A DNA stretch of 64,000 nucleotides. It comes from an uncultured Gaiellales bacterium. GTDB taxonomy: Bacteria > Actinomycetota > Thermoleophilia > RBG-16-64-13. Made by a program: the position numbers and the translations under genes. The notes beneath the pieces were generated by a model. That model did not search any database, was not told the DNA's origin, and saw nothing but the letters and a program-made list of their open reading frames with translations. Positions 1 to 24,689 of the stretch are shown here, piece after piece. The first letter of the stretch is position 1. Every line of letters begins with the position of its first letter. The stretch is taken from positions 63,741 through 127,740 of the forward strand of contig CAYNPL010000006.1 of the NCBI GenBank assembly GCA_964399135.1, given 5' to 3'.

Positions 1-60
1 AGTTGGTAGAGCAGGGGACTCTTAATCCCAAGGTCGAAGGTTCGAATCCTTCCGGGCGCA
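1..60 (+). tRNA. tRNA-Lys(CTT), 5' end cut by the window edge; CCA not encoded
   Basis: D-arm AGTTGGTAGAGC, anticodon arm GGGA-CT-CTT-AA-TCCC, T-arm GAAGG-TTCGAAT-CCTTC, acceptor 3' strand CGGGCGC plus discriminator A at 60. Confidence 0.93.
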
Positions 61-2268: not shown

Positions 2269-2796
2269 GTGGCTCCTGACCCTGTTCTTGTGAGATTCGC
2301 CCCCCTCCTTGAAGACACGGGCGTTGAAGGCCCGGTGCTGGATCTGGCCTGTGGCAGCGGGCAGAACGGTCTCTATCTTGCCGGCCTGGGCCTGCCGGTG
2401 GTGTTGGCCGATCGCTCCGCGGAGGCATTGAAGGCGGCCCGGGAGTCGGCGCGAGAGCGAGGGCTTGCGGTGACCTTCTGGCAGGTCGACCTAGAGGCGG
2501 GGTTGGATCCGCTCGAGCGGGAGCACTACCGGGCCATCCTGGTCTTCCGCTACCTCCATCGCCCGCTCATCCCTTCCATACGAAGGGCCGTCCGTCCCGG
2601 CGGCGTTCTCATCTACGAGACCTTCACAAGCGGGCAGCCCGCGTACGGCCACCCCCACAATCCGGACTACCTGCTGCAGCCGGGGGAGCTGGCCGGGTGG
2701 TTCGCGGACTGGCAGGTGATCCACTATTTCGAAGGTCTTCTGGAAGAGCCGCGGCGGGCCATGGCCCAGATCGTCTGCCGGAAGCCCGGGGTGTGA
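2269..2796 (+). CDS. Class I SAM-dependent methyltransferase (TehB-like)
   Basis: VLDLACGSGQN motif I and FRYLHR..PGGVLIYETF. Confidence 0.88.
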   Translation: MAPDPVLVRFAPLLEDTGVEGPVLDLACGSGQNGLYLAGLGLPVVLADRSAEALKAARESARERGLAVTFWQVDLEAGLDPLEREHYRAILVFRYLHRPLIPSIRRAVRPGGVLIYETFTSGQPAYGHPHNPDYLLQPGELAGWFADWQVIHYFEGLLEEPRRAMAQIVCRKPGV

Positions 2797-2898
2797 ACCC
2801 GCTTCGGCGGCCTCGGCCTACCCGGTGGCGCCCAACGCGCAGTCTGGAGGCGTTCCGGACTGCTTCCGCAGCCACCGCCCGCTGGGTATGATGGCGGC

Positions 2899-3403
2899 GT
2901 GAGATATCGCGTCGGAGCAGATGTCGGGGGGACGTTCACCGATCTGGTGGCCATGGATGAATCGGGCAGGGTCACTGTGGCCAAGGCCCCCGCTACTCCG
3001 GCCGACCAGTCCTACGGGATGCTCGACGCCGTTGCGAAGGCGGGCATCGACCCCTCCTCTGTGGAGTCTTCTCCCACGGCACCACCGTGGGGGTCAACGC
3101 CGTCATCGAGAACAAGGGCGCCCGAGTGGCCGTTATCATCACCGAGGGCTTTCGCGACGCGCTCGAGTTGCGCCGGGGCCAGCGGAGGCAGGCAGCTCGC
3201 TGGACCACATCGTGAAGACCACCATCTACCTTAAGGACGTGAGGGACTACCAACTGATGCGGGATACCGAGTGGGAGTACTGGCAGCAACACGCCCCCGG
3301 GCTCATCGAGGAACCGCCGGCCAGCACCTTCGTGATGCCGGCTTCACTCGCCCGGTCCAGTATGCTGGTGGAGATCGACGTCGTCGCCTGCCTGAAGGAC
3401 TGA
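2899..3403 (+). pseudogene. Chimeric remnant: frameshifted 5' part of a hydantoinase/oxoprolinase A gene joined to the 3' part of a RidA-family gene
   Basis: Frame 1 reads RVGADVGGTFTDLV (2899-3066). After a one-base loss at about 3067 it reads FSHGTTVGVNAVIENKGARVAVIITEGFRDALELRRGQR (3069-3185). A third frame then reads EAGSSLDHIVKTTIYLKD...PPASTFV...LVEIDVVA* (3185-3403). Confidence 0.8.
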
Positions 3404-3454
3404 AACCACGCGAGCCGGCGGCCCCCGGGCGCCGGCGCCGGCGAAGGAGCATGC

Positions 3455-4315
3455 ATGAGCATGAAGCTGTACATCCTCGACTGCGGGCAGATGTGGGTGG
3501 AACGCGGGTTCCTGTGGCACTTCGGTGACGCCGCCCTCACCGATTGTGAGTATCAGGAGGGGCCGTTCGGCATCCGCAACATCCAGTTCTTCATCGACCA
3601 TCCCAAAGCCAAGGTGGTCTTCGACCTGGGATTCACCAGCGAGCTGTTCGATAGGCTGGTGGGGTTCCCCCATCGCAAGGGACCGCACGGCTTCCACCTG
3701 CTCAAGACCCCGGAACAGAACCCCATCTCCCAGCTGGCCCAGATCGGGGTCAAGCCCGACGACATCGATTACGTCATCATCTCGCATCTCATGAGCGAGC
3801 ATGCCGGCTACCTGCCGGAGTTCGCGGGAAAGAAGGCCAAGATCGTGGTGCAGCAAGCCGAGATGGAGTACGCGAGCCGCATCGGGACGCCGCCCCGCCC
3901 GGGTGACGAGCCCGCGGTTGAGCAGTTCCACACCTGGATGTACGTGCGCGAATACTTCGAGAAATCCGGCCTCGATTACTTGTTCATCGACGGGGACTAC
4001 GAGCTGCTGGGCAAGGACGTGGAGATCCTGAGCCTGCCTGGGCATACGCCCGGCTTCCAGAACGTCATGGTGCGGCTGCCCAAGACCGGCCCCGTGTTCC
4101 TGTCGGCCTGTGAGCACCGGGGCATGTACTACGACATCCCCGTGAACGGCTACGCTCCCGGCATACCCCACGCCTTCACCTGGTCGGCGGCGGGCGAGCT
4201 GTGGAGTTTCAAGCGCGTGCGCGACCTGGTGGAGAAGGAGGAGGGCCAGATCTTCTTCGGTCACGACCAGCAGCAGTTCGAGACCCTCAAAGCCTGTCCG
4301 GAGTACTACGAGTAG
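3455..4315 (+). CDS. N-acyl-homoserine-lactonase-like metallo-beta-lactamase-fold hydrolase
   Basis: KLYILDCG, VVFDLG, IISHLMSEHAG (HxHxDH position), LPGHTPG, IFFGHD. Confidence 0.85.
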   Translation: MSMKLYILDCGQMWVERGFLWHFGDAALTDCEYQEGPFGIRNIQFFIDHPKAKVVFDLGFTSELFDRLVGFPHRKGPHGFHLLKTPEQNPISQLAQIGVKPDDIDYVIISHLMSEHAGYLPEFAGKKAKIVVQQAEMEYASRIGTPPRPGDEPAVEQFHTWMYVREYFEKSGLDYLFIDGDYELLGKDVEILSLPGHTPGFQNVMVRLPKTGPVFLSACEHRGMYYDIPVNGYAPGIPHAFTWSAAGELWSFKRVRDLVEKEEGQIFFGHDQQQFETLKACPEYYE

Positions 4316-4327
4316 GCGGGGGAGACC

Positions 4328-5269
4328 ATGCATCGTGTTCTATTGCCCTTCGAGTTCTCCGAGCCGGTCTCGGTGGAGGAGGCGGTGGCGCTCATCGACG
4401 GCGACCGGGTGCGGGCCTTGGCCGGCGGCGTCGATCTGGTGCTCAAGATGCGCCTGCGCGAGATCGTGCCGGAGCGGGTGGTGAGCCTGCAGAAGATCCG
4501 GGGGCTCGACCATGTCCGCCCCGACACCGAAGTCGGCAGCGGCGGGTTGCGCATCGGGGCGCTGGCCACCCTGTACCAGGTGGAGCGATCGGCCGTGGTC
4601 CTGCAGGGGTGGCCGTTGCTGGCCGAGGCCATCGGCAGCATCGTCTCGGTGCAGACCAAGGCGATGGGGACGCTGGTGGGCAACCTGTGCGCCGGCACCC
4701 CTGCTTCGGATGTGGCGCCGGCCCTGTACGCGCTCGGAGCCCGGGTGCGGATAGCGGGGCAGAGCGGCCACCGGGAGATACCGATAGAGGAGTTCTATCT
4801 CGACGCGGGCAAGACGGCGGTGGGCCCGCACGAGATGGTCACCGAGGTGGTGGTGCCGGCGCCGGCCGCAGGCAGCGCCGGCGCCTTTCTCAAGCTGTCC
4901 AAGACCGCCGAGGACATAGCCAAGGTGAACGTGGCCGTAGCGGTGTCGGCCGCCGGCGGGAAGTGCGTGCACGCGCGCATCGCCATCGGGGCGGCGGCGC
5001 CCACTCCGGTCAGGGCTGAGGAGGCTGAGCGGGTGCTGGAGGGGCGTCTTCTGGACGCGGCCGCCGCCGAGGCGGCGGCGGCCGCGGCGGTCCGGGTGGT
5101 GAGTCCCCTCACGGACGTGAGGTCGACGGCTCGCTATCGGGCGGAGATGGTGCGTGTGCTGGTGCGGGACGCGCTGGGGGTGGCGGCCGCCCGGGCGGGC
5201 GCGCCGATAGGCGCCGCCGCGGGCGCGGCCGCCCCTGGGGACCACGGCCCGGCCGGGAAGGAGGGCTGA
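4328..5269 (+). CDS. Xanthine-dehydrogenase-family molybdenum hydroxylase, FAD-binding subunit (CoxM/XdhB-like)
   Basis: ALAGGVDL, IGALATL, GTLVGNLC..TPASD, ARIAIGAAAPTP, SPLTDVRSTARYR. Confidence 0.93.
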   Translation: MHRVLLPFEFSEPVSVEEAVALIDGDRVRALAGGVDLVLKMRLREIVPERVVSLQKIRGLDHVRPDTEVGSGGLRIGALATLYQVERSAVVLQGWPLLAEAIGSIVSVQTKAMGTLVGNLCAGTPASDVAPALYALGARVRIAGQSGHREIPIEEFYLDAGKTAVGPHEMVTEVVVPAPAAGSAGAFLKLSKTAEDIAKVNVAVAVSAAGGKCVHARIAIGAAAPTPVRAEEAERVLEGRLLDAAAAEAAAAAAVRVVSPLTDVRSTARYRAEMVRVLVRDALGVAAARAGAPIGAAAGAAAPGDHGPAGKEG

Positions 5270-5751
5270 TGGCCAAAGAGATCGCCACGTTCCTGGTGAA
5301 CGGCCGGAAGTATGAGGTCATCATCGAGCCGCACATGCTGCTCATCGATGTGTTGCGCGACTCGTTGGGCCTTACCGGCACCAAGTATGCCTGCGGCGCC
5401 GGCGACTGCGGCGCCTGCACCGTCCTCCTCGAGGGCAGGCCGGTGCTCTCCTGCCTCACCCTGGCGGTGACGGCCAAGGGCAAGAGCATCCTCACCATCG
5501 AGGGTCTGGCAGAGGGCGACAGACTGCATCCCATCCAGCAGGCCTTCGTGGACCAGGGCGCGGTGCAGTGCGGATTCTGCACCCCGGGCATGGTGCTCAC
5601 GGCCAAGGCTCTGCTCGACGAGATCCCGGAACCGACCCGCGACGAGATCAAGGCTTCCATCGGCGGCAATCTGTGCCGGTGCACCGGCTATGTGAAGATC
5701 GTGGACGCGGTGGAAGCAGCCGCAGCGGCGATGAGGAAGGGAGGGGCGTGA
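5269..5751 (+). CDS. Xanthine-dehydrogenase-family 2x[2Fe-2S] subunit (CoxS/XdhC-like)
   Basis: GTKYACGAGDCGACTV..SCL and QCGFCTPG...GNLCRCTGY. Confidence 0.95.
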   Translation: MAKEIATFLVNGRKYEVIIEPHMLLIDVLRDSLGLTGTKYACGAGDCGACTVLLEGRPVLSCLTLAVTAKGKSILTIEGLAEGDRLHPIQQAFVDQGAVQCGFCTPGMVLTAKALLDEIPEPTRDEIKASIGGNLCRCTGYVKIVDAVEAAAAAMRKGGA

Positions 5752-8090
5752 TGAGCACCGGTCCGACCACCGACTTCTCCTCGGTCGGGAGGCGGTTGAC
5801 CCGTCCCGACGCAGCCGCAAAGACCACCGGCGCGGCCGTTTACGCCGCCGACATCGCACTGCCCGGCATGCTCGTGGGGCGCATCCTCATGAGCCCCCAC
5901 GCCCACGCCCGCATCGTCGGGATCGACACTTCCAAAGCGAAGGCACTGCCGGGGGTGGAAGCCGTCATCACCTTCGCGGACGTGCCCAAACGTCCGTTCA
6001 CGCGATCGGTGATGGCCGAAGGGCTGCCGCCGTTCGCTTACGAGGGCGAGAACCAGGACCAGTACATCTTGTCCGACAAGGCCCGCTACCAAGGTGACTG
6101 GATCGCCGCGGCGGCGGCCGTCGACGCCTACACGGCCGAGCGCGCTCTCGACCTCATCGAGGTGGAGTACGAGGTGCTGCCGGCGGTGTTCGATATCGAT
6201 GATGCGCTCAAGCCCGGGGCCCCGATCGTCCACGATGCCTGGAAGGACAACGTGGCCGGCGTCATCGAGCACCCGTTCAACCGGGGGGATCTCGAGGCGG
6301 CGCTGACCGCTTCCGCCTACGTGGTGGAGTTCTCCGGCCGCAACTCGCGGCAGAAGCAGGCTCACCTGGAACCCGATGTGGCCGTGGCCGCCTGGGACGC
6401 CGCCGGCCGGCTGACCGTGTGGTCGCCCAACCAGAACGCCCACCTGGCCAAGAAGGCAATGGGGCGGAGGGTGTTCGACATCGGCGAGGGCAACGTCCGC
6501 TGGATCACGCCGGCGGTGGGCGGTGGGTTCGGAGCGCGGCTCAGCTTCGGGGTGGAGCCGGTGGCCGCGATGCTGGCCAAGGTGGCGGGTAGGCCGGTGA
6601 AGGTCATGGTCACCCGGGAGGAGGACTTCAACGGCTGGAACTGTCGCACCGAGCAGCGCCAGACCATCCGGGTCGCGGTGAGCGGAGACGGCACCATCAA
6701 CGCCGTCGAGCAGAACGTGCTGTCCGACGCCGGGGCCTACTTCTCCCACAGCGGCACCATCAGTGCGGTCAACATGCAGTCGACGCTCGGGGTCATGCGC
6801 TCACCGGTGGTGCGCGGCAAGGCCGTCATCGTCTACACCAACAACCCCACCTCCAGCGGGATGCGGGGATACGGCAACCCGGAAGGCTCGTTCATCCTGC
6901 AGCAGGCCCTCGACATGGCCGCAGAGAAGTGCGGCATGGACCCGGTGGAGTTCCGGCTGAAGAATGCCCGCGGTGCCGGCGAGCCCAGCATGTGGGAGCC
7001 GCAGGCCATCACCACCTGCGCACTCCCTGAGTGCATCCGGCGCGGGGCGGAGGCTATCGGCTGGAGGGACAAGTGGCAAGGCTGGGGCGTGAAGAAGGAG
7101 GGCCGCTATCGCCGGGGGGTGGGCATGTCCATCATGACCCATGCCAGCGGGGCGGGCGGATTCTTGCTGGAGCACTCCACGGCCGTGCTGAGGCTGAACG
7201 AAGACGGGACCGCGCAGTTGACGGTGAGCCCGTGCGAGATGGGCCAGGGCATCCTGGGGGTGCTCTCGCAGATCGCGGCCGAAGGGGCGGGGCTGCGCTA
7301 TGCGGACATCCGGGTGGTCACCGGCGACACCGACGTGACCCTGTTTGACATCGGCACCCATGCCAGCCGCTCCACCTATGCCATCGGCAATGCCGCGCTG
7401 GATGCGGCCACAAAGGTCCGGGCGATCGTCCTGGAGCGGGCGGCGCGCCTGCTGGGCGCCGCCCCCCAAGACCTGGATGTCCGCGAAGGCCGCGTCTTCA
7501 AGACCGCCGATCCCTCCACCGGCATCACGGTGGCCGAGGTGGCGCACCAGGGGATCTACGAGTACGGCACCGACGCCCAGCACATCATGGCCACCGGCAA
7601 ACACCAGTGCGTCATGCACTGCCCCAATTTCCAGGCCGGCTTCGCCGAGATAGAGGTAGACGTGGAGACCGGTGTCATCACCGTGATCAAGGTGGTCATT
7701 GCCCACGACATCGGCCGGGCCATCAACCCGTTGACGGTGGAGGGCTGCCTCGAGGGCGGCGCCGCGCAAGGTCTGGGATACGCGCTCACTGAGGACCTGG
7801 TCATCGATCGGACGACCGGGAAGGTGCTGAGCGACAGCTTCGCCACGTACAAGATGCTCTCCGCCTTGGACATGCCCGAGGTGGAGGTGATCTTGGTGGA
7901 GGAGCCCGACCCGACCGGACCCTTTGGGGCAAAGGGGGTCGGCGAGACCGGGATCACCAACGTGGCTCCAGCGGTGGCCAACGCGCTGTACGACGCCGCG
8001 GGGGTGCGGGTCCACTCACTCCCGCTCACCCCGGAGAAGGTGCTGGAGGCCCTGGAGGCGCGGGAGACTGGGCGGGAGTCGGCGATCTGA
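5751..8090 (+). CDS. Xanthine-dehydrogenase-family molybdopterin-binding large subunit; substrate unknown
   Basis: KTTGAAVYAADI, SPHAHARI, VGGGFGAR, MRGYG, EMGQG, GAKGVGE; ATG 5751 overlaps the upstream stop (true start lies inside ORF 5568..8090). Confidence 0.93.
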   Translation: MSTGPTTDFSSVGRRLTRPDAAAKTTGAAVYAADIALPGMLVGRILMSPHAHARIVGIDTSKAKALPGVEAVITFADVPKRPFTRSVMAEGLPPFAYEGENQDQYILSDKARYQGDWIAAAAAVDAYTAERALDLIEVEYEVLPAVFDIDDALKPGAPIVHDAWKDNVAGVIEHPFNRGDLEAALTASAYVVEFSGRNSRQKQAHLEPDVAVAAWDAAGRLTVWSPNQNAHLAKKAMGRRVFDIGEGNVRWITPAVGGGFGARLSFGVEPVAAMLAKVAGRPVKVMVTREEDFNGWNCRTEQRQTIRVAVSGDGTINAVEQNVLSDAGAYFSHSGTISAVNMQSTLGVMRSPVVRGKAVIVYTNNPTSSGMRGYGNPEGSFILQQALDMAAEKCGMDPVEFRLKNARGAGEPSMWEPQAITTCALPECIRRGAEAIGWRDKWQGWGVKKEGRYRRGVGMSIMTHASGAGGFLLEHSTAVLRLNEDGTAQLTVSPCEMGQGILGVLSQIAAEGAGLRYADIRVVTGDTDVTLFDIGTHASRSTYAIGNAALDAATKVRAIVLERAARLLGAAPQDLDVREGRVFKTADPSTGITVAEVAHQGIYEYGTDAQHIMATGKHQCVMHCPNFQAGFAEIEVDVETGVITVIKVVIAHDIGRAINPLTVEGCLEGGAAQGLGYALTEDLVIDRTTGKVLSDSFATYKMLSALDMPEVEVILVEEPDPTGPFGAKGVGETGITNVAPAVANALYDAAGVRVHSLPLTPEKVLEALEARETGRESAI

Positions 8091-16640: not shown

Positions 16641-16676
16641 TGCTTCCTCCTGAGGCTTCGTCGAGTTCTTTTCAGG

Positions 16677-16766
16677 CGGAGAGGGGGGGATTCGAACCCC
16701 CGGGACCGCTTGCGCGGCCCAACGGTTTTCGAGACCGCCGCATTAAGCCAGCTCTGCCACCTCTCC
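16677..16766 (-). tRNA. tRNA-Ser(CGA)
   Basis: Minus strand GGAGAGGTGGCAGAG...GCGGT-CT-CGA-AA-ACCGT, long variable arm, GGTTCGAATCC, CCTCTCC-G. Confidence 0.95.
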
Positions 16767-16960: not shown

Positions 16961-17194
16961 ATGAGGATCATGAGGGTGAAGCGTACCTTGGCTCTGATCG
17001 TGATAGCAGCCTTGCTGGTGCTGGGTCTGGCGACCGTAGCCGTTGCCGCACCGACCCCGGCCGGTCCGGCCGGCCCGGCACCGAACGCGGGCGACGGCGT
17101 TTCCGACGGCAGCGGCCTGGCCTCACCTTTCGGTCCCGGCCTGGGGGGAGCGCCGAACTCGGGCGACGGCGTGTCCGACGGGAGCGGCTTCTAG
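16961..17194 (+). CDS. Small secreted Gly/Pro-rich protein with a duplicated PN(A/S)GDGVSDGSG motif
   Basis: 77 aa; signal peptide ending AVA-A; AAGGAG RBS; two copies of a 12-aa motif. Confidence 0.75.
   Translation: MRIMRVKRTLALIVIAALLVLGLATVAVAAPTPAGPAGPAPNAGDGVSDGSGLASPFGPGLGGAPNSGDGVSDGSGF
17081..17188 (+). repeat. Two imperfect 36-bp direct repeats (17081-17116 and 17153-17188) encoding the duplicated motif
   Basis: CCGAACGCGGGCGACGGCGTTTCCGACGGCAGCGGC vs CCGAACTCGGGCGACGGCGTGTCCGACGGGAGCGGC. Confidence 0.9.
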
Positions 17195-17285: not shown

Positions 17286-18080
17286 TCAGCGTCTCCGCTC
17301 CAGCCGCTCCAGCGCCTGCCGGGCGGCGTGGCGTACCTTCTCGTCGGCGTCGTCGCGGGCAAGGGCGCGGAGGACGTCGACGGGATACTCCGCCAGCGCG
17401 GCGATCCGCGCCACCAACCGCAACCGGACCGGGGCCGGCAGAGAGGGCAGCTCGCGCCGGGTCAACACCAAGGCGGCGTCGAGGGACCCCTCGGTGGCCT
17501 CCAGCATCCGTTCTACGGCTGGATCGAGTTGGGAGGCCGCGCCGGGCCCAAGGCCGGGCGGCTCTGGTGCTGAGTGCGTTTTGGGCGCGTCGCCCGGGGG
17601 CGCACGGAAGAGGGGCTTCTCGGCCGGGCCCGGCGGGAGGTTGCGGAGGGCGGCGGAGAGGGGCTCCGCCCTGAAGCGCCCGTAAGCACGTGGCCGTTCG
17701 TCGGGCACCGGGCCGCGGCCAAAGGTGGCGGGTGAAAGCCGCTCGCCTGCCGGGGTATCTGCCGGGGAATCCTCTTTGAGGTCGTCATAGAGCGGCTCGT
17801 CGGTGAGCCTGCGCAAACGTTCGGCCGCCAGGTCGGTCTGGGTACGGCCATAGCGGGCCACGAGGTGGTGGACGATGCTCTCGCTCATCAAGTTCTCGTA
17901 GGACACGCCAAAATGCTTCGCCAGCGCCCTCACGGACTCCGCAGAGGGCAGTCGCTCCCCCCGCTCCATCCGCGAGAGCATGGCCACCGAAAGGCCGGTG
18001 CCCTCGGCGACCTGCTCCAGGGTCTCGCCCCGCTCGTAGCGCAATTCCCGTAACAGATAGCCGAAATCGTTCTGCTCCAC
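17286..18080 (-). CDS. XRE-family HTH regulator with a low-complexity linker and a C-terminal helical (HEAT-like) segment
   Basis: LRELRYERGETLEQVAEGTGLSVAMLSRMERGER.PS; C-terminus LARDDADEKVRHAARQALERL; GTG start with GGGAGG RBS. Confidence 0.85.
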   Translation of the reverse strand: MEQNDFGYLLRELRYERGETLEQVAEGTGLSVAMLSRMERGERLPSAESVRALAKHFGVSYENLMSESIVHHLVARYGRTQTDLAAERLRRLTDEPLYDDLKEDSPADTPAGERLSPATFGRGPVPDERPRAYGRFRAEPLSAALRNLPPGPAEKPLFRAPPGDAPKTHSAPEPPGLGPGAASQLDPAVERMLEATEGSLDAALVLTRRELPSLPAPVRLRLVARIAALAEYPVDVLRALARDDADEKVRHAARQALERLERRR

Positions 18081-18109
18081 GCTGGGACCTCCCGCTCCAT
18101 TCTACACCA

Positions 18110-18183
18110 TTGTCAAATGAACGTGACAACGTAGGCAAAGACCGTGTATGCTGCCTTTGACAATTCTGGCAAACCAACTTGCC
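18110..18183. promoter_or_regulatory. Operator-like inverted repeats in the divergent XRE/vWA promoter region
   Basis: TTGTCA-N8-TGACAA (18110-18129), imperfect TTTGACA..TGGCAAA (18156-18173), and GGCAA-N6-TTGCC (18168-18183). Confidence 0.6.
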
Positions 18184-18241
18184 GGCTGGGGCGGATCAGC
18201 GACGGCTGCCGACCGGTGCGGCTGCAAAGGAAGGGGCAAAA

Positions 18242-19012
18242 ATGGACGGCACGCGGCCACTCAAAGAGCAGGAAGAGCGCAGCATCCTCATCAACTTCGT
18301 TCTGGACAAATCCGGCTCCATGGATGCCATTCGGGACGCCACGATCACTGGGTTCAATCAGTTCCTGCGCGAGCAGCAGGAGGAAGGGGGCGCAGCGGCG
18401 CTGACCCTCACCCTGTTCGACACGTCGTTCACCAACGTGGAGCAGGCGACCCCCATCGGTCAAGCGCGTCTACTCGACCGCAGCAGCTATAGGCCCGGGG
18501 GTATGACGGCCTTGTACGATGCCATCGGCCATACCATGCGCATCACCGACGACTATGTGGCCGAGCACAAGCCCGATCAGGTGATCTTCGTGATCATGAC
18601 CGACGGGATGGAGAACTCCAGCCGGGAGTTCGACCGAGCGGCGATCCTCCGGATGATCGAGGAGCGTCAGCAGTCGGCCGGGTACGAGTTCGTCTACTTG
18701 GGGGCCAATCAGGACTCCTACGCGGTCGGTGGCAGCCTGGGCATCCGGGGCGGGCGGACGCTCGATTTCGCCGCGGCGCCGGCGCAGGCGATGGAGACCA
18801 TGCATCGGCTGTCGGTGAACGTGAAGTCGCACCGGCGGAGCGGGCACGCCCGGGCGGCCGACCAGACCTTCTTCTCACCCGAGTTCGAGGCGTTGGGCGA
18901 GCAGGACTACGAGTCGTACAAAGCCGGTCGGGCCAAAGGGCCGCAGCGTCCGAAGCCGACCGAGGCTCCCGGGGACGGGACTGCCCAAGGCCCAAGCGGA
19001 GGGGGCGCGTGA
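18242..19012 (+). CDS. vWA-domain protein
   Basis: MIDAS motif FVLDKSGSM, GMTALYDAIG, VIMTDGMENSS, FVYLGAN. Confidence 0.88.
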   Translation: MDGTRPLKEQEERSILINFVLDKSGSMDAIRDATITGFNQFLREQQEEGGAAALTLTLFDTSFTNVEQATPIGQARLLDRSSYRPGGMTALYDAIGHTMRITDDYVAEHKPDQVIFVIMTDGMENSSREFDRAAILRMIEERQQSAGYEFVYLGANQDSYAVGGSLGIRGGRTLDFAAAPAQAMETMHRLSVNVKSHRRSGHARAADQTFFSPEFEALGEQDYESYKAGRAKGPQRPKPTEAPGDGTAQGPSGGGA

Positions 19013-20018
19013 TGGAATCCGTCATCAGAACGCTTCTCGGGTCGATCCAGTTGGGCGATCCGGTCGGCGACAGAGGTCTGACCATTCTGCCCGTGCTTGG
19101 AGAGTTCACCGGCGTGCCCCCGCTCGTCACCCTGGGGGAGGCGCTCGCCGCCGGCACCTTGACCATCACCGAGGTCTCCCTGGGCGGGTCGGTACCGGAT
19201 CTGAAGGCGCGCAACACCGCGGCTGTGGGGGTGCTCATCGTCGACGGCGAGGAGCTGGCCGGAGCCAAGCAGAACCGGGTGCTCAACACCTCGGTCTACA
19301 TCGGACCGTGGCAGGAAGTCGTCATCCCGGTCAGCTGCACCGAGCACGGCCGCTGGAGCTACCAGTCGACCGCGTTCTCCGATTCGGGCCACCTTTCGGC
19401 GGTGGCGGTGCGGATGGCCGCCCATGACTCGGTCACCCGCAGCGCCCGTCGGGGCGGCGGCTTCCGGTCCGACCAGGGCCGGGTGTGGGAGGAGGTGGCC
19501 TTGTTGCAGGAACGGCATCGCGTGGCCTCCCCCACCGCGGCCGCGCGGGATGTCTATGAGGCTCGTGATGAGACGGTGCGGCGGCGGGAGACGGCCTTCA
19601 CCCGGGTGCCCGGCCAGCTGGGACTGCTCGCCTTGTGGAGCGGCCGGGTGGTCGGACTCGACGTGCTGGGGACCTCCGCCGCCTATGCCCGGCTGCACGA
19701 GCGCTTCGTGCGTTCCTACGCGCTGGATGCGCCCGGGGGCGGCCCGGCCTCGGTCGAGGCCGACCGCCGCACCGCCAAAGAGTGGCTGGCGGGGTTGGCC
19801 GGGTCCACCGTCACCGTGCACGAGTCGCCGGGCAAGGGGTGGCCTACCGCTTCACCGGCTCGAGAGCGGTGGGATCGCTGCTGGCGGTGGATGGGGCGAT
19901 CCTGCATGCTGTCGCTTTCGCCACCGAGGCGCAGGCCCAGGGCCGGTTCCGGGAGCCACGATCCCCGGAGCAGCGTTATCCCGGCTACTTCGAGCGCCGG
20001 GACCGCTTCCCCTGGTAG
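19009..20018 (+). CDS. ARPP-1 family (DUF6569) protein with a one-base frameshift near the 3' end
   Basis: SVPDL...N...LIVDGEELAGAKQNRVLN, IPVSCTEHGRW, S.QGRVW. The family-like C-terminus (GVAYRFTG..AVGSLLAVDGAILHAVAF) continues in another frame after the G-run at 19836-19839 and stops at 20018. Confidence 0.8.
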
Positions 20019-20242
20019 GGCCAGGGGTCTGGGCGGCCCAGGACCCGGGGGCTCGTGAGGCCGCCCGGGCCCTGGGCCGTGAGCGCCAACTCCCTACCAA
20101 GGTCCGAGTCGGTTCGACCGTCATCGGCGATACGCGGGAGGCCTCCGGAGGCTCCACGGGCGAGAACGCCCGGCGTCCCCGGAGGCCGGCGATTCGACGG
20201 GGGTGACGTGGTTGACGGCGGAAGGCCCGGGCCGTATATTGG

Positions 20243-20265
20243 AACCAATATGGTTACCAAATGGT
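20243..20265. promoter_or_regulatory. Antitoxin operator-like palindromes upstream of the Arc/FitA gene
   Basis: AACCA-ATA-TGGTT followed by ACCA-AA-TGGT, just after a TATATT -10-like hexamer (20235-20240). Confidence 0.6.
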
Positions 20266-20276
20266 TGGAGCCGGCC

Positions 20277-20525
20277 ATGCCCACTACACTCACCCTCAAG
20301 AACATCCCAGACGACGTGTATGAGCGGCTGAAGACGGCGGCCAAAGCCCACCGCCGCAGCCTCAACAGCGAGGCGATCGTCTGTCTGGAGGCCGCGCTGA
20401 TGCCCGCACAGCGGATAACTGTCGAGCAGCGGATCGAGAAGATCCGACGCCTGCGCGAGAGCCTACCCGGAGGGGGCTTCAGCCGCGAAGATATCGACGC
20501 CTTCATAGAGGAGGGTCGCCCGTGA
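20277..20525 (+). CDS. Arc/FitA-like ribbon-helix-helix antitoxin
   Basis: LTLKNIPDDVYERLKTAAKAHRRSLNSEAIVCLE. Confidence 0.88.
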   Translation: MPTTLTLKNIPDDVYERLKTAAKAHRRSLNSEAIVCLEAALMPAQRITVEQRIEKIRRLRESLPGGGFSREDIDAFIEEGRP

Positions 20526-20917
20526 TCGTGGTCGACTCCAACATCGTCGCCTATCTCTGCCTTGGACGTGAGTACGGAGCAGCCGCGGCAGCGCTCTTAA
20601 AGAGGGATAGCGAATGGGCGGCTCCCGTCCTCTGGCGGAGCGAAGTGCAAAACGCGATGGCGGGGCATCTGAGACGGGGGGAATTGAAGCCGGCGGAGGC
20701 GAGAGAGCTGATGGCCGAGGTGGAAGATCTTATGAAAGACAACGAATACCAGGTCAACTCCAGTAGCGTCCTTGACCTCGTCCAGGAGTCCGATTGCTCT
20801 GCCTACGACTGCGAGTACGTGGCGCTCGCGATGGCCCTGAGGACCAAGCTGGTCACCATGGACGCACAGATCCTGCGGGCGTTTCCGACAGTAGCCGTTC
20901 CGCTATCCTCTCACTGA
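20522..20917 (+). CDS. vapC: PIN-domain toxin (VapC/FitB family)
   Basis: MIVVDSNIV, WRSEV.N, SAYDCEYVALA, LVTMD; GTGA overlap with the antitoxin gene. Confidence 0.9.
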   Translation: MIVVDSNIVAYLCLGREYGAAAAALLKRDSEWAAPVLWRSEVQNAMAGHLRRGELKPAEARELMAEVEDLMKDNEYQVNSSSVLDLVQESDCSAYDCEYVALAMALRTKLVTMDAQILRAFPTVAVPLSSH

Positions 20918-22244: not shown

Positions 22245-22505
22245 ATGGAACGCGGGTCGATCACATTCAGTATTCACGCCCTGGATGTCCTTCACGAGCG
22301 AGCGATCGATCCCAGTTGGGTGGAGCGCGCGGTGGCCGACCCCGATCTCGTGCTCCGCGATGTGGCCGATCCTCAGGTAGTGCACGCTCTCGCCGTGATC
22401 CCTGAGCGGGAAGGCCGAGTTCTACGGGTCGTCTATAATGCAGAAGGTGCTTCCGCGCATGTAGTTACCGCGTTCTTTGATCGTTCCATGAGGGGGAAGC
22501 TATGA
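22245..22505 (+). CDS. DUF4258-like protein (putative toxin)
   Basis: FSIHA.D...ER.I, GRVLRVVYN, VVTAFFDR. Confidence 0.75.
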   Translation: MERGSITFSIHALDVLHERAIDPSWVERAVADPDLVLRDVADPQVVHALAVIPEREGRVLRVVYNAEGASAHVVTAFFDRSMRGKL

Positions 22506-22702
22506 GGGTCCGATTCGACCAACAGGCCGATGCCCTCTATCTGCGCCTCGACGAGTCCACCATCGTCGAGTCTGAGGAAGTCCGGCCGGGTGTTGTACTC
22601 GATCTCGACGAACGGGGTGAGGTCGTTGGTATTGAGATCCTGCGGGTCGCCCGGCGTCTACCCGAGGCCGAACTCAAGCATTTGGAGTTCGACCTGGTCT
22701 AG
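22502..22702 (+). CDS. DUF2283 domain protein (putative antitoxin)
   Basis: FDQQADALYLRL..IVESEEV..GVVLDLD..GEVVGIEIL; ATGA overlap. Confidence 0.85.
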   Translation: MRVRFDQQADALYLRLDESTIVESEEVRPGVVLDLDERGEVVGIEILRVARRLPEAELKHLEFDLV

Positions 22703-22704
22703 TC

Positions 22705-23721
22705 CTAACGACCCGGGTGGTCGCCTGTGTCGCTGCGGCCGGCGCCGACGATGTCGCAGATGCCGGCGCACTCGCCGCCTTCGGTCTCGAGCTCCAGGGT
22801 GGCGTGATTGACCGCGAACTCCCGGGCCAGCATGTCTTTGAGACCGGCCGTGATGGTCCCGGTCTGGGAGAGGGCGGTGTCCGCCACGACCACATGGGCG
22901 GACAGGGCCAGGTCGCTGGAGGAGATCGACCACACGTGTAGGTCGTGGATGCCTTTCACCCCCGGAACGGCCAGCATGTCCCGCTCCAGAGCGGCCAACT
23001 CGATGGTCTCCGGAGTCCCCTCCATGAGCACGTTCACCGCCCGGCGGATGATGAGGACGGCTTCCCGCCCGATCCAGAGCGACACTAGTATCGACACGAT
23101 GGCGTCGGCGTAGTCCCAGCCCCAGAGGTAGACGATCAGACCGCTCAGCATGACCCCGAAGCTGGTGGCGGCGTCACCCACCAAGTGGAGGAAGGCGCTG
23201 CGGAGATTGAGGTCGTGCCCGTGGGAGCGCAGGAGCACCGCGGCGAAGGTGTTGATGACCAGGCCGGCCGCGGCGAAGCCAACCACCCAGAGGCCGTCGA
23301 CCGCCTGCGGCTCCAGGAGACGCCGCACCGCCTCCACGATGATGTACAGCGAAATGGCTGCCAGCACGACTGAGTTGAAGAGGGCCACCAGGATCTCCGC
23401 CCTCTTGTGGGCAAAGGTGCGGGTGGCGGTGGCGGGCCGCCGGCCCAGGCGGACCGCCCACAGACTCAAGCCGAGGGCGACCACGTCGCTGAGGTTGTGG
23501 GCGGCGTCGGAGAGCAGACCCAGGCTGTTGGCGATGATGCCGCCGATCACCTGCATGAGGGTGATCAGCAGATTGAGGACCAGGCTGAGGATCAGGCGGG
23601 CGTCGGGGGCGGCGCCTATGATCGGGGGACGGCCGCGGTCGTGATGATCGTGGCCGCCGGGGGTTCTCTTCGCGTCGAACCGCCCTGCTTCATGCGACCG
23701 GTCCGCAGCCGGGTGGCTCAT
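22705..23721 (-). CDS. Cation diffusion facilitator (CzcD/ZitB-like) metal exporter
   Basis: SLGLLSDAAHNLSD, FLHLVGD, HDLHVWSI; His-rich N-terminus; ATG 23721 overlaps the upstream stop. Confidence 0.92.
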   Translation of the reverse strand: MSHPAADRSHEAGRFDAKRTPGGHDHHDRGRPPIIGAAPDARLILSLVLNLLITLMQVIGGIIANSLGLLSDAAHNLSDVVALGLSLWAVRLGRRPATATRTFAHKRAEILVALFNSVVLAAISLYIIVEAVRRLLEPQAVDGLWVVGFAAAGLVINTFAAVLLRSHGHDLNLRSAFLHLVGDAATSFGVMLSGLIVYLWGWDYADAIVSILVSLWIGREAVLIIRRAVNVLMEGTPETIELAALERDMLAVPGVKGIHDLHVWSISSSDLALSAHVVVADTALSQTGTITAGLKDMLAREFAVNHATLELETEGGECAGICDIVGAGRSDTGDHPGR

Positions 23722-24689
23722 GCCACGGTGATCTCGTCGCCCACCCTGACCGTGCGGCAGCGCTCGCCCAGAGTGCGGTTGAAAAGGTCGAGGCTCCAGT
23801 CGCAGATGTCGTGACCGGAAACGCCCACTACCCCTAGGTCGAGACCGGCGAGCAGCGCCGCCGCCTCCCGGGTCTCGTCGCGGGTGATGCGCTGCCAAGG
23901 CAGCTTGCCGTTGCCGATGATGTTCTGGCCGCCCTTGCCCACCCGGGAGCCCGTGACTGGGAAGTGCAGCCCGCCGACCACGCCGTAGAGGGGAAGGCCG
24001 GTGACTGCCTGAGCCCGAGCCACCAGCCGGCTCACAGTGGGATGGCCGCAGCCGACGATCATCACCACGCCTTTGCCTTCGACGTTCACGAGGAGAGCGT
24101 GTTCGGCTATCGTGCCCATCAGCCAGATGGCCCGCTTGATGGGTCCCGTGCTGGCGATGCCGGCGGCCAGGCGGCGCGGCGCCGTCACCACCTGCACCTG
24201 GGCGGTGGGGTGGGTCATGGAGGTGGGAACGTAGGCCGGGATGCCGGACAGATCGACCGGCTCGGCCGACAGCGAGAAGTAGGCCCGGTCCATCTGCTCC
24301 ACTCCCCCGACATGGTCGAGATGGAGGTGGGAGATGAAGACGGCGTCTAGGTCGGCCGGCGAGACGCCCAGAGCCTCCATGTTCCTGAGCAGCGGCGAAG
24401 GATGCTCCCGGCGCACGTTGCGCCCTACATCGAAGAGGATGGTCTTGTCGCCGGCCTTCACCAGGTACGACACGCCCGGTTCGGTCGCCAGGCCCTCGCG
24501 GGCGGCGTAGAACTCCACCAGGGGCAAGATCGACAGATGGGAGACGGCCCCCAGATCCACCAGCGGCTCCACCTGCGTGTCGGCCCATTCCCGGTCGGCC
24601 TCGTGCCGCTCGCGTAGGAAGGCCTTGGTGGCCCTGGGCTTGGTGATGCCGGCGCAGGCCCAGTAGACCGCCCAGCCCTTGTCATTCAT
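23718..24689 (-). CDS. MBL-fold metallo-hydrolase (MJ0448-like)
   Basis: ILFDVG, FISHLHLDHVGG, IVGCGHP, VVGGLH, SGHDIC. Confidence 0.85.
   Translation of the reverse strand: MNDKGWAVYWACAGITKPRATKAFLRERHEADREWADTQVEPLVDLGAVSHLSILPLVEFYAAREGLATEPGVSYLVKAGDKTILFDVGRNVRREHPSPLLRNMEALGVSPADLDAVFISHLHLDHVGGVEQMDRAYFSLSAEPVDLSGIPAYVPTSMTHPTAQVQVVTAPRRLAAGIASTGPIKRAIWLMGTIAEHALLVNVEGKGVVMIVGCGHPTVSRLVARAQAVTGLPLYGVVGGLHFPVTGSRVGKGGQNIIGNGKLPWQRITRDETREAAALLAGLDLGVVGVSGHDICDWSLDLFNRTLGERCRTVRVGDEITVA

Follow-up and report, generated by a model that had tools for sequence, protein, structure and literature searches.

A divergent XRE, vWA and ARPP-1 gene module in an uncultured Gaiellales bacterium: a conserved XRE/vWA pair with an optional ARPP-1 gene

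Results

Three genes at the locus

The stretch analysed here (the window) comprises 64 kb of contig CAYNPL010000006.1 from an uncultured Gaiellales bacterium, and the element under study lies at positions 17286–20018. An XRE-family repressor gene on the minus strand (17286–18080, 264 aa) diverges from two plus-strand genes, one encoding a stand-alone cytoplasmic von Willebrand factor type A (vWA) protein (18242–19012, 256 aa) and one encoding an ARPP-1 (PF20208) protein (19012–20018), the latter needing one frame correction. The window has a GC content of ~67%, and its closest relatives are uncultured Actinomycetota metagenome-assembled genomes (MAGs), one of them labelled Gaiellales. The three genes had been recognised, with the same coordinates, in an earlier annotation made from the letters alone (the sequence-only reading), and its domain assignments were correct, as judged by the Pfam helix-turn-helix (HTH) matches of the XRE, a PF20208 match of 277 bits and the residues of the metal-ion-dependent adhesion site (MIDAS) of the vWA protein.

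The XRE protein matches Pfam HTH_3 (E = 1.1e-12) and HTH_31 (E = 4.9e-12). Alignment of 14 XREs, from loci with and without ARPP-1, places the HTH at the N-terminus (residues 1–65), followed by a conserved helix (LMSExI...RYG) and by a disordered, otherwise variable linker that holds the short acidic motif AYGRFRAEPLSAAL (consensus SYGxFxEMDIxxAL); the C-terminal helices, DADEKVRHAARQALERL, are HEAT-like. The acidic motif is a candidate ligand for the MIDAS of the neighbouring protein, which would make the vWA a component of the switch. Among PADLOC families the best match of the XRE is CapH (E = 1.5e-11), with the generic HTH also matching RmrA and control proteins. A homologue search with the XRE was dominated by low-complexity words and returned four matches only.

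The longest open reading frame (ORF) of the vWA gene spans 18179–19012, the likelier start being the ATG at 18242, which is preceded by AAAGGAAGGGG, the upstream element lying at 18226–18236. The MIDAS is complete (D22-x-S24-x-S26, T89 and D121) and its columns are invariant in the vWA alignment. The Pfam VWA match is weak (E = 0.008; 16.9 bits, below the curated cut-off of 23.8). However, the AlphaFold2 (AF2) model of a 59%-identical homologue, P0155 (predicted local distance difference test score, pLDDT, 87.8), matches 292 vWA/I-domain chains of the PDB at E ≤ 1e-3 using Foldseek, topped by TRAP and integrin I-domains (probability 1.0; template modelling score, TM, 0.66–0.69 normalised by target), so that the vWA fold is secure despite the weak Pfam score. 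A PDB sequence search with the vWA alignment gave no match, and an NCBIfam scan of the vWA and ARPP-1 proteins gave nothing useful.

The stop codon of vWA and the start of ARPP-1 overlap in GCG-TGA-TGG. ARPP-1 may start at GTG 19009, which yields the GTGA overlap first described, or at ATG 19012 with a 1-nt overlap, the start taken by the gene call on the near-identical contig L001; translational coupling is upheld, with the GTGA overlap as one of two options. The ORF as found (19009–20058) matches PF20208 with E = 3.7e-76 (256.7 bits, model positions 2–271), and a single shift of frame near 19830–19839 gives E = 2.1e-82 (277.2 bits) over the full model (2–297 of 297), in both cases above the curated threshold of 27 bits. 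The protein beginning at 19009 is ARPP-1, as had been predicted, and of the two profile checks then suggested, PF20208 was positive and Pfam VWA fell below its cut-off, with the vWA fold supported by the model instead. RefSeq annotates such proteins as 'DUF6569 family protein'.

Three motifs are invariant in the ARPP-1 alignment, DGEELxGAKQNRxLN, IPVSCxExGRW and SDQxxVW. GAKQNR is encoded at 19261–19278 and the invariant Cys codon lies at 19336–19338; the window has both Q87 (within GAKQNR) and C109 (within IPVSCTE), neither of which varies among 22 aligned relatives. The AF2 model (pLDDT 87.7, predicted TM 0.86) suggests a beta-rich N-terminal half (12–128) carrying the first two motifs, a helical middle carrying SDQxxVW and two beta-hairpin/meander units (hairpins 202–219, meander 266–304), as read from the secondary structure, and the invariant polar residues cluster in the beta-rich half. 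A fold search of the PDB and BFVD returned nothing at E ≤ 1e-3 (TM ≤ 0.17), and a PDB sequence search with the ARPP-1 alignment found no relative. Hence no function can be assigned from the fold. The lack of matches agrees with the published view of the ARPP domain as unrelated to characterised folds.

A conserved promoter and operator region

The XRE and vWA genes are separated by 161 bp. This region was aligned from 17 loci, including loci without ARPP-1 and some whose vWA is only 57–60% identical to that of the window, and several blocks are conserved in register: ATTCTAC, TTGkCAAA, TTGACA-N5-TGGCAA (twice) and TAtnnT. Beside the XRE start lies the block CATTCTACAC (18098–18107), whose ATTCTAC is invariant in 17 of 17 loci; its reverse complement contains TAGAAT, a possible −10-like hexamer for the XRE transcript. 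The operator-like half-site ATTGTCAAA (18109–18117) forms a 9-nt perfect inverted repeat with TTTGACAAT at 18156–18164 and also a 6-nt inverted repeat with 18124–18129, and its TTGkCAAA motif is kept in the 17 loci.

Two larger operator-like sites follow on the plus strand. The first, O1 (GTGACAACGTAGGCAAA, 18123–18139; consensus TTGACA-N5-TGGCAA), overlaps the −35 hexamer of the vWA operon, and the second, O2 (TTGACAATTCTGGCAAA, 18157–18173), follows at a distance of 34 nt. Immediately before O2 the vWA/ARPP-1 operon has its −10-like hexamer, TATGCT (18147–18152, plus strand, 18-nt spacer from the −35; TAtnnT in relatives). The sigma-70-like promoter thus formed, GTGACA-18 nt-TATGCT at 18123–18152, was found in a scan that gave two sites in a 4-kb region against 0.3 expected. 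The motif TGACAA-N4-GGCAAA occurs in two copies 34 nt apart and nowhere else in the window. No Rfam family was matched in the vWA leader at gathering thresholds. Non-coding sequence conserved to this depth strongly supports a dedicated repressor whose operators overlap the promoter, and XRE itself would bind these operator-like sites. The sequence-only reading had already given the pair its own regulator and operators.

The copy in this genome is probably damaged

At 19828–19829 (plus strand) ARPP-1 of the window reads CC where contigs L001 and L002 have CCC, so that one C is missing. L001 is a 94 kb metagenome contig (Joint Genome Institute, JGI, 3300037851), and both contigs are 99.2% identical to the window from a tRNA-Ser gene rightwards. 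The 1-nt deletion leaves the 5' part of the gene (19012–19829, plus strand, residues 1–272) in the original frame and puts the last 62 residues (274–335; 19830–20018, plus strand) out of frame, comprising the final beta-meander and the C-terminal tail RYPGYFERRDRFPW. An intact ARPP-1 of 335 aa (P0001) is present in JGI and Logan data, encoded on L001 and L002, and a nearby G/A difference at 19832 leaves the protein unchanged when read in the correct frame.

Five indel events separate the window from L001 over ~16 kb; four are intergenic, and the one in ARPP-1 is the only coding event. Random sequencing errors would mostly hit genes, and the indels therefore look like real polymorphisms, the frameshift included. 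Random sequencing noise was judged an unlikely source for this reason, and the frameshift is probably real, a single assembly error being the less probable alternative. Moreover, the first base of the −35 box is G at 18123 in the window (GTGACA) and T in 16 of 16 other loci compared, among them L001, in which, at 99.2% identity, both the −35 box and ARPP-1 are intact. The frameshift and the T>G change together indicate that the XRE/vWA/ARPP-1 copy of this strain is probably decaying; the frame-corrected operon first envisaged was right as to the frameshift and understated the damage.

A separate case is locus L009 (6218–8139), in which XRE and vWA are each split into several overlapping ORFs, the frameshifts being either assembly errors or the mark of another decaying copy.

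Conservation of the triad and of the XRE/vWA pair

A census with the ARPP-1 alignment, covering one genome per GTDB species, gave at least 596 ARPP-1 loci, and neighbourhoods were taken from the closest 80. The order XRE(−)/vWA(+)/ARPP-1(+) occurs in seven Actinomycetota MAGs (L003–L009), with ARPP-1 59–69% identical to that of the window, and in an eighth genome, L084; a metagenome scan with the vWA alignment added L092, L099, L102, L103, L105 and L119, some of the triad contigs being partial. The triad is therefore real and recurs in about 14 independent loci, and the same gene order in genomes and metagenome contigs argues against chance. In L083 and L084 the vWA stop and the ARPP-1 start are separated by a 2-nt gap.

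Loci L086–L089, from Coriobacteriia and other Actinomycetota, share the divergent XRE and the intergenic block and have no ARPP-1. Likewise, among 36 close metagenome vWA loci all those with upstream sequence have the XRE, and ARPP-1 comes next in only six, with no other gene recurring downstream; ~19 of the 36 have enough downstream sequence to show an XRE/vWA dyad without ARPP-1. A tblastn search (E ≤ 1) found no ARPP-1 remnants in the vWA-only loci. The conserved core is thus the dyad, which is far more widespread, and ARPP-1 is an optional add-on. The earlier expectation that the triad would recur across genomes holds (eight genomes and six metagenome contigs), whereas the triad as the unit of conservation gives way to the dyad.

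One main clade of the vWA tree gathers the ARPP-1-linked loci, with L004 and L092 scattered among unlinked loci, and ARPP-1 of the L092/L102 branch is 47–50% identical to that of the main clade. From these sequences the vWA/ARPP-1 link would be either old with repeated losses or have arisen more than once; its occurrence in two divergent ARPP-1 sub-branches argues for function rather than chance adjacency. Viewed from the ARPP-1 side, 73 of the closest 80 loci have no vWA of this family within 8 kb, the family being found with one or two ARPP-1 sub-branches only.

In L086 (6936–10650), from a Coriobacteriia MAG, and in L087, same-strand genes for a 138-aa protein of unknown type and a 1035-aa TIR_2-WD40 protein come after the XRE/vWA pair, an arrangement seen in no other lineage. 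TIR domains consume NAD+ in many immune systems.

The wider vWA family

Close relatives of the vWA number 1,499 in the database, and their alignment has a mean column identity of 55%, with 70 of ~245 columns invariant. A profile search of 1.84 billion representatives gave 3,949 clusters (50% identity) with E ≤ 1e-30, a number that rises to 17,263 at E ≤ 1e-3, and the XRE-linked actinobacterial branch appears as a narrow twig of a large family of 200–250-aa stand-alone vWA proteins. Distant relatives (35–45% identity) have no XRE, and a Macro-domain gene lies next to or near the vWA in 7 of ~48. In L164 (1644–6417), a low-GC metagenome contig, and in the near-identical L148, an AAA ATPase gene is followed in turn by genes for a 156-aa protein, Macro, vWA and ADP-ribosylglycohydrolase (ARG); the Macro protein of L164 has a C-terminal extension and its vWA is 35% identical to the query family. 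Judged by its genes, this operon looks like an uncharacterised ADP-ribose-processing cassette, and the Macro/ARG contexts provide an independent, if thin, second line linking the vWA family to ADP-ribose chemistry.

Homologues with ~40% identity, annotated as hypothetical, are also found in phages (217 records), the majority being large phages of Streptomyces, Microbacterium and Pseudomonas. In Streptomyces phage Teutsch the homologue, gp98 (L170, 4019–4624), lies between terminase/HNH genes and a tRNA cluster; many of the carriers are lytic actinophages.

These distributions raise the possibility, which we hold only tentatively, that XRE and vWA form a self-contained regulatory switch of Actinomycetota, conserved since ancient times, in which the MIDAS would bind the acidic motif of the repressor linker and the vWA would act as co- or anti-repressor, possibly sensing a metal or ligand. 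ARPP-1 would then be a passenger or output gene of particular lineages, and its chemistry could be unrelated to ADP-ribose. The many loci with a dyad alone, and with no other recurrent third gene, fit this well, as do the extreme conservation of vWA, HTH and operators across classes, the retention of the acidic motif in an otherwise variable linker and the conserved chromosomal synteny described below. However, the stop/start overlap, kept in two divergent branches, ties ARPP-1 to vWA, and the distant vWA members and phage homologues without XRE imply that the vWA has XRE-independent roles.

ARPP-1 contexts and published systems

The neighbours of the closest 80 ARPP-1 loci include WYL-WCX regulators (17 of 80), ARG (12 of 80), response-regulator receiver proteins (seven, in archaea) and fused XRE-M78 (IrrE-like) regulators (four), and in L070 ARPP-1 is fused at its C-terminus to a DSP-PTPase. 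They reproduce the contexts behind the family name in the paper that defines ARPP (Iyer, Burroughs, Anantharaman and Aravind, 2022, Viruses 14:1977; PMC9503650). According to that paper, ARPP has an absolutely conserved Cys and Gln and is proposed to act on ribose moieties via the Cys; the vWA is proposed to be a peptide-binding chaperone in ARG-centred operons, themselves predicted systems that are proposed to counter ADP-ribosylation by viruses. The origin of ARPP in predicted ADP-ribose conflict systems, as given in the sequence-only reading, agrees with this account. Other two-gene partners of ARPP named there are a WYL regulator, HIRAN and a PF01522 deacetylase; the combination of XRE/vWA with ARPP-1 does not occur in the paper's text (PMC9503650). 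A literature search on the ARPP-1 family found nothing beyond this paper, and the XRE/vWA regulatory pair has no description in the literature searched.

In L045, L073, L078 and L082 (Thermoleophilia-type) a divergent regulator of ~514 aa lies upstream of ARPP-1 and combines an XRE HTH with an M78/IrrE-like metallopeptidase, a DNA-damage-type switch.

As in the ARG-centred systems of PMC9503650, ARPP and a vWA 'chaperone' stand under a negative HTH regulator, the two being coupled here. Those systems, however, have an ARG at their centre, and there is none at the locus or in the window; they couple a phosphatase (R-P, calcineurin-like, HD or HAD), whereas none is in the Pfam table of the syntenic contig L001 and no DSP-PTPase is in the window; and they use a Nudix- or WYL-HTH regulator, where the triad has an XRE with neither Nudix nor WYL. 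The triad also has no Macro/NADAR gene, and its vWA is the conserved anchor with ARPP the variable part, the reverse of the published account. The ARPP two-gene neighbourhoods described there likewise are small cassettes outside ARG operons with a dedicated transcription factor; the partner in the triad is instead a MIDAS vWA with an XRE. The lack of an ARG, a phosphatase or an AAA+ gene, first read from the letters, was reproduced by tblastn of the window (ARG, phosphatase) and by the L001 table, which has neither an AAA+ gene nor a phosphatase family.

Short cytoplasmic vWA proteins with an intact MIDAS are also known as the TerY/YegL type, and several close relatives of the vWA are named 'YegL' by JGI. 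Stand-alone proteins of this type presumably correspond to COG4245, and the TerY-P triad, reportedly described by Anantharaman, Iyer and Aravind in 2012, is said to consist of vWA, a PP2C phosphatase and a Ser/Thr kinase. By contrast, genes for PP2C, kinase or Ter proteins are missing from the neighbourhood tables of the triad and dyad loci, where the vWA has an XRE as its partner, and the Pfam VWA match is weak. The locus resembles vWA-MoxR pairs in having a vWA adaptor in an operon with a working partner and differs from them in that no triad or dyad locus examined has an AAA+ gene, the upstream AAA of L164 being a classic PF00004. Control of defence operons by CapH/CapP and by XRE-M78 finds a parallel in the CapH match of the XRE and in the four ARPP-1 loci with XRE-M78. 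However, no peptidase partner is encoded at the triad, and the release mechanism must therefore differ.

Flanking genes

A tRNA-Ser(CGA) gene (16675–16766, minus strand) lies on the XRE side of the triad. On the other side a gene for a FitA-type ribbon-helix-helix (RHH) protein (20277–20525; Pfam FitA-like RHH, E = 1.5e-11) overlaps a PIN gene (20522–20917; Pfam PIN, E = 5.4e-8) by 4 nt at 20522–20525, which identifies an antitoxin/toxin pair of the VapBC type II toxin-antitoxin kind. A promoter-like site for VapB at 20212–20240 was found in the promoter scan, and VapBC and a CoA-transferase, present in the window and in L084, are missing from the otherwise syntenic triad locus L083. Having its own promoter-like site and being absent from L083, VapBC is a neighbouring, separate module, and we rejected it as a core component of XRE/vWA/ARPP-1.

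RHH/PIN pairs directly downstream of vWA or ARPP-1 occur in several lineages (window 20212–20917, L084 8248–8888, L095 1352–2579, the last with an extra AbrB/MazE-like ORF); L096 (7103–7510) has a PIN-like ORF alone and L083 no such pair. The recurrence reflects either an insertion hotspot for toxin-antitoxin genes or a loose association.

The flank order of cation diffusion facilitator (CDF) transporter, metallo-beta-lactamase (MBL)-fold protein, dCMP deaminase and S15 peptidase is common to the window, L001 and L083, so that the triad sits in conserved chromosomal synteny among ordinary genes. L001 carries an additional island of ~5 kb (2640–7666) at tRNA-Ser, with an Mrr restriction enzyme, an integrase fragment and four unknown genes, which the window does not have. 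The island is flanked by a GGAGAGGG repeat at the 3' end of the tRNA gene, on the side away from the triad, and the identity between window and L001 rises from 97.0% on the left of tRNA-Ser to 99.2% on its right, pointing to a recombination boundary. The tRNA gene is thus an integration site or hotspot for a different island on its other side, and the triad was rejected as part of a tRNA-borne island. That tRNA-Ser(CGA) and VapBC are adjacent, as first pointed out, is correct; neither belongs to the system.

The same evidence bears on a prophage immunity remnant, in which a CI-like XRE and a phage-derived vWA would have no current cellular role. A divergent repressor with operators, the vWA homologues of the 217 phage records, and the tRNA gene with an integrase fragment nearby in L001 would all suit such an origin. 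Yet no locus has other phage genes, a phage homologue of ARPP-1 was not found (plasmids gave three weak matches, annotated 'DUF6569 family protein'), the L001 island is on the other side of the tRNA and the dyad is under strong purifying selection across classes; we consider this origin very improbable.

Several other features were noted nearby. A 77-aa ORF (16961–17194, plus strand) with a signal-peptide-like N-terminus and two PN(A/S)GDGVSDGSG(L/F) repeats, called as a gene on L001 and L002, could encode a small secreted or precursor peptide; it was rejected as a fourth member, occurring in the same species only and in no other triad locus. Ferritin was rejected as a recurrent neighbour, with only two loci. 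A DUF4258/DUF2283 gene pair (22245–22702, plus strand) with a 4-nt overlap is toxin-antitoxin-like and present in the window and L001, with DUF2283 alone in L084 and neither gene in L083. The 323-aa MBL-fold protein (23718–24689, minus strand) has Pfam matches that include Anti-Pycsar_Apyc1, a cyclic-nucleotide phosphodiesterase family, and its gene adjoins a dCMP/MafB19-type deaminase gene, the pair being syntenic in L001 and L083. A tRNA gene is clipped by the start of the window (1–60, plus strand; Rfam tRNA, model positions 14–71).

Discussion

We favour, at a probability of roughly 0.5, a repressor-gated module of an adaptor and an enzyme with an ADP-ribose-type substrate. XRE would bind the operator-like repeats overlapping the −35 and just past the −10, keeping the vWA/ARPP-1 operon, and probably its own gene, off, and a signal would relieve this repression. 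The metal site of the vWA MIDAS would grip an acidic residue of a protein partner, which may be a modified target, ARPP-1 or the XRE linker motif. ARPP-1, with a fold absent from the PDB and an invariant Cys, Gln and Glu/Arg-Trp cluster, would be the enzyme and act on a ribose-linked ADP-ribose-derived adduct. On this view the module would be a slimmed-down branch, placed under an XRE, of the ARG-centred systems for ADP-ribose processing that PMC9503650 predicts. In its favour are the recurrence of the triad with tight coupling in relatives, the vWA/ARPP-1 link in two divergent sub-branches and the operator/promoter block kept even in vWA-only loci. A connection with ADP-ribose is suggested by the ARG, WYL-WCX and DSP-PTPase contexts of related ARPP-1 genes, by the Macro/ARG operons of distant vWA members and by the roles proposed for vWA and ARPP in PMC9503650. 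A combined form, in which XRE/vWA is an anciently conserved Actinomycetota sensor-repressor switch with the vWA gripping the linker motif and ARPP-1 an optional Cys-centred enzyme for ADP-ribose-derived adducts on proteins or DNA, seems to us unlikely.

Several observations weigh against an adaptor-plus-enzyme module of this kind. Most XRE/vWA pairs have no ARPP-1, so that the core function can do without it. No ARG, Macro, DSP-phosphatase or WYL homologue was found by tblastn in the whole window, no phosphatase family lies nearby and no Nudix gene is present at the locus or in the window; the link to ADP-ribose is thus a second-hand one. The XRE has no ligand-sensor domain recognisable by Pfam, Nudix and WYL included. 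The tail RYPGFFERRxxFPW, which all complete ARPP-1 proteins of the main vWA-linked clade share and 72 unlinked ones lack without exception, was considered as a vWA docking peptide and rejected, since the second vWA-linked branch (L102) has a different tail and the signal is confounded with phylogeny. Furthermore, the vWA and ARPP-1 proteins match no PADLOC family at E ≤ 0.1, the flanks are syntenic housekeeping genes with no defence island, and the strong conservation of the vWA would be unlikely for a fast-evolving immune sensor.

These last points also count against an abortive-infection or toxin-like module, in which ARPP-1 would be a growth-arresting effector, vWA a sensor of phage proteins and XRE the silencer, costly copies being lost fast. 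The resemblance of the XRE to CapH-type defence regulators would favour it, together with ARPP-1 relatives under WYL and XRE-M78 (IrrE-like) regulators, typical of defence or DNA-damage regulons, the gain or loss of ARPP-1 between close vWA lineages, the frameshift and promoter mutation of this strain, the toxin-antitoxin pairs and the Mrr/integrase island nearby, and the vWA homologues of phages. Against this, inheritance is vertical with conserved flanks and sequence conservation is strong, and we judge such a function improbable.

The triad is a new contextual variant within an already described, predicted family network and no new kind of system. Beyond the sequence-only reading, the analysis adds three things: a more widespread dyad whose operators are conserved, links of the vWA family to Macro/ARG genes and to phages, and evidence of damage to the copy in the window. 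All carriers are uncultured MAGs and the window copy is probably broken. Nevertheless, ARPP-1 is a widespread family with no solved or matching structure, and the compact vWA/ARPP-1 operon, free of other confounding enzymes, offers a simple handle on its function. Moreover, the actinobacterial branch of the vWA family is firmly tied to an XRE repressor, and the operators are the same from class to class. If its ADP-ribose link is true, the adaptor-plus-enzyme module would be a minimal addition to the predicted class of host systems for reversing ADP-ribosylation.

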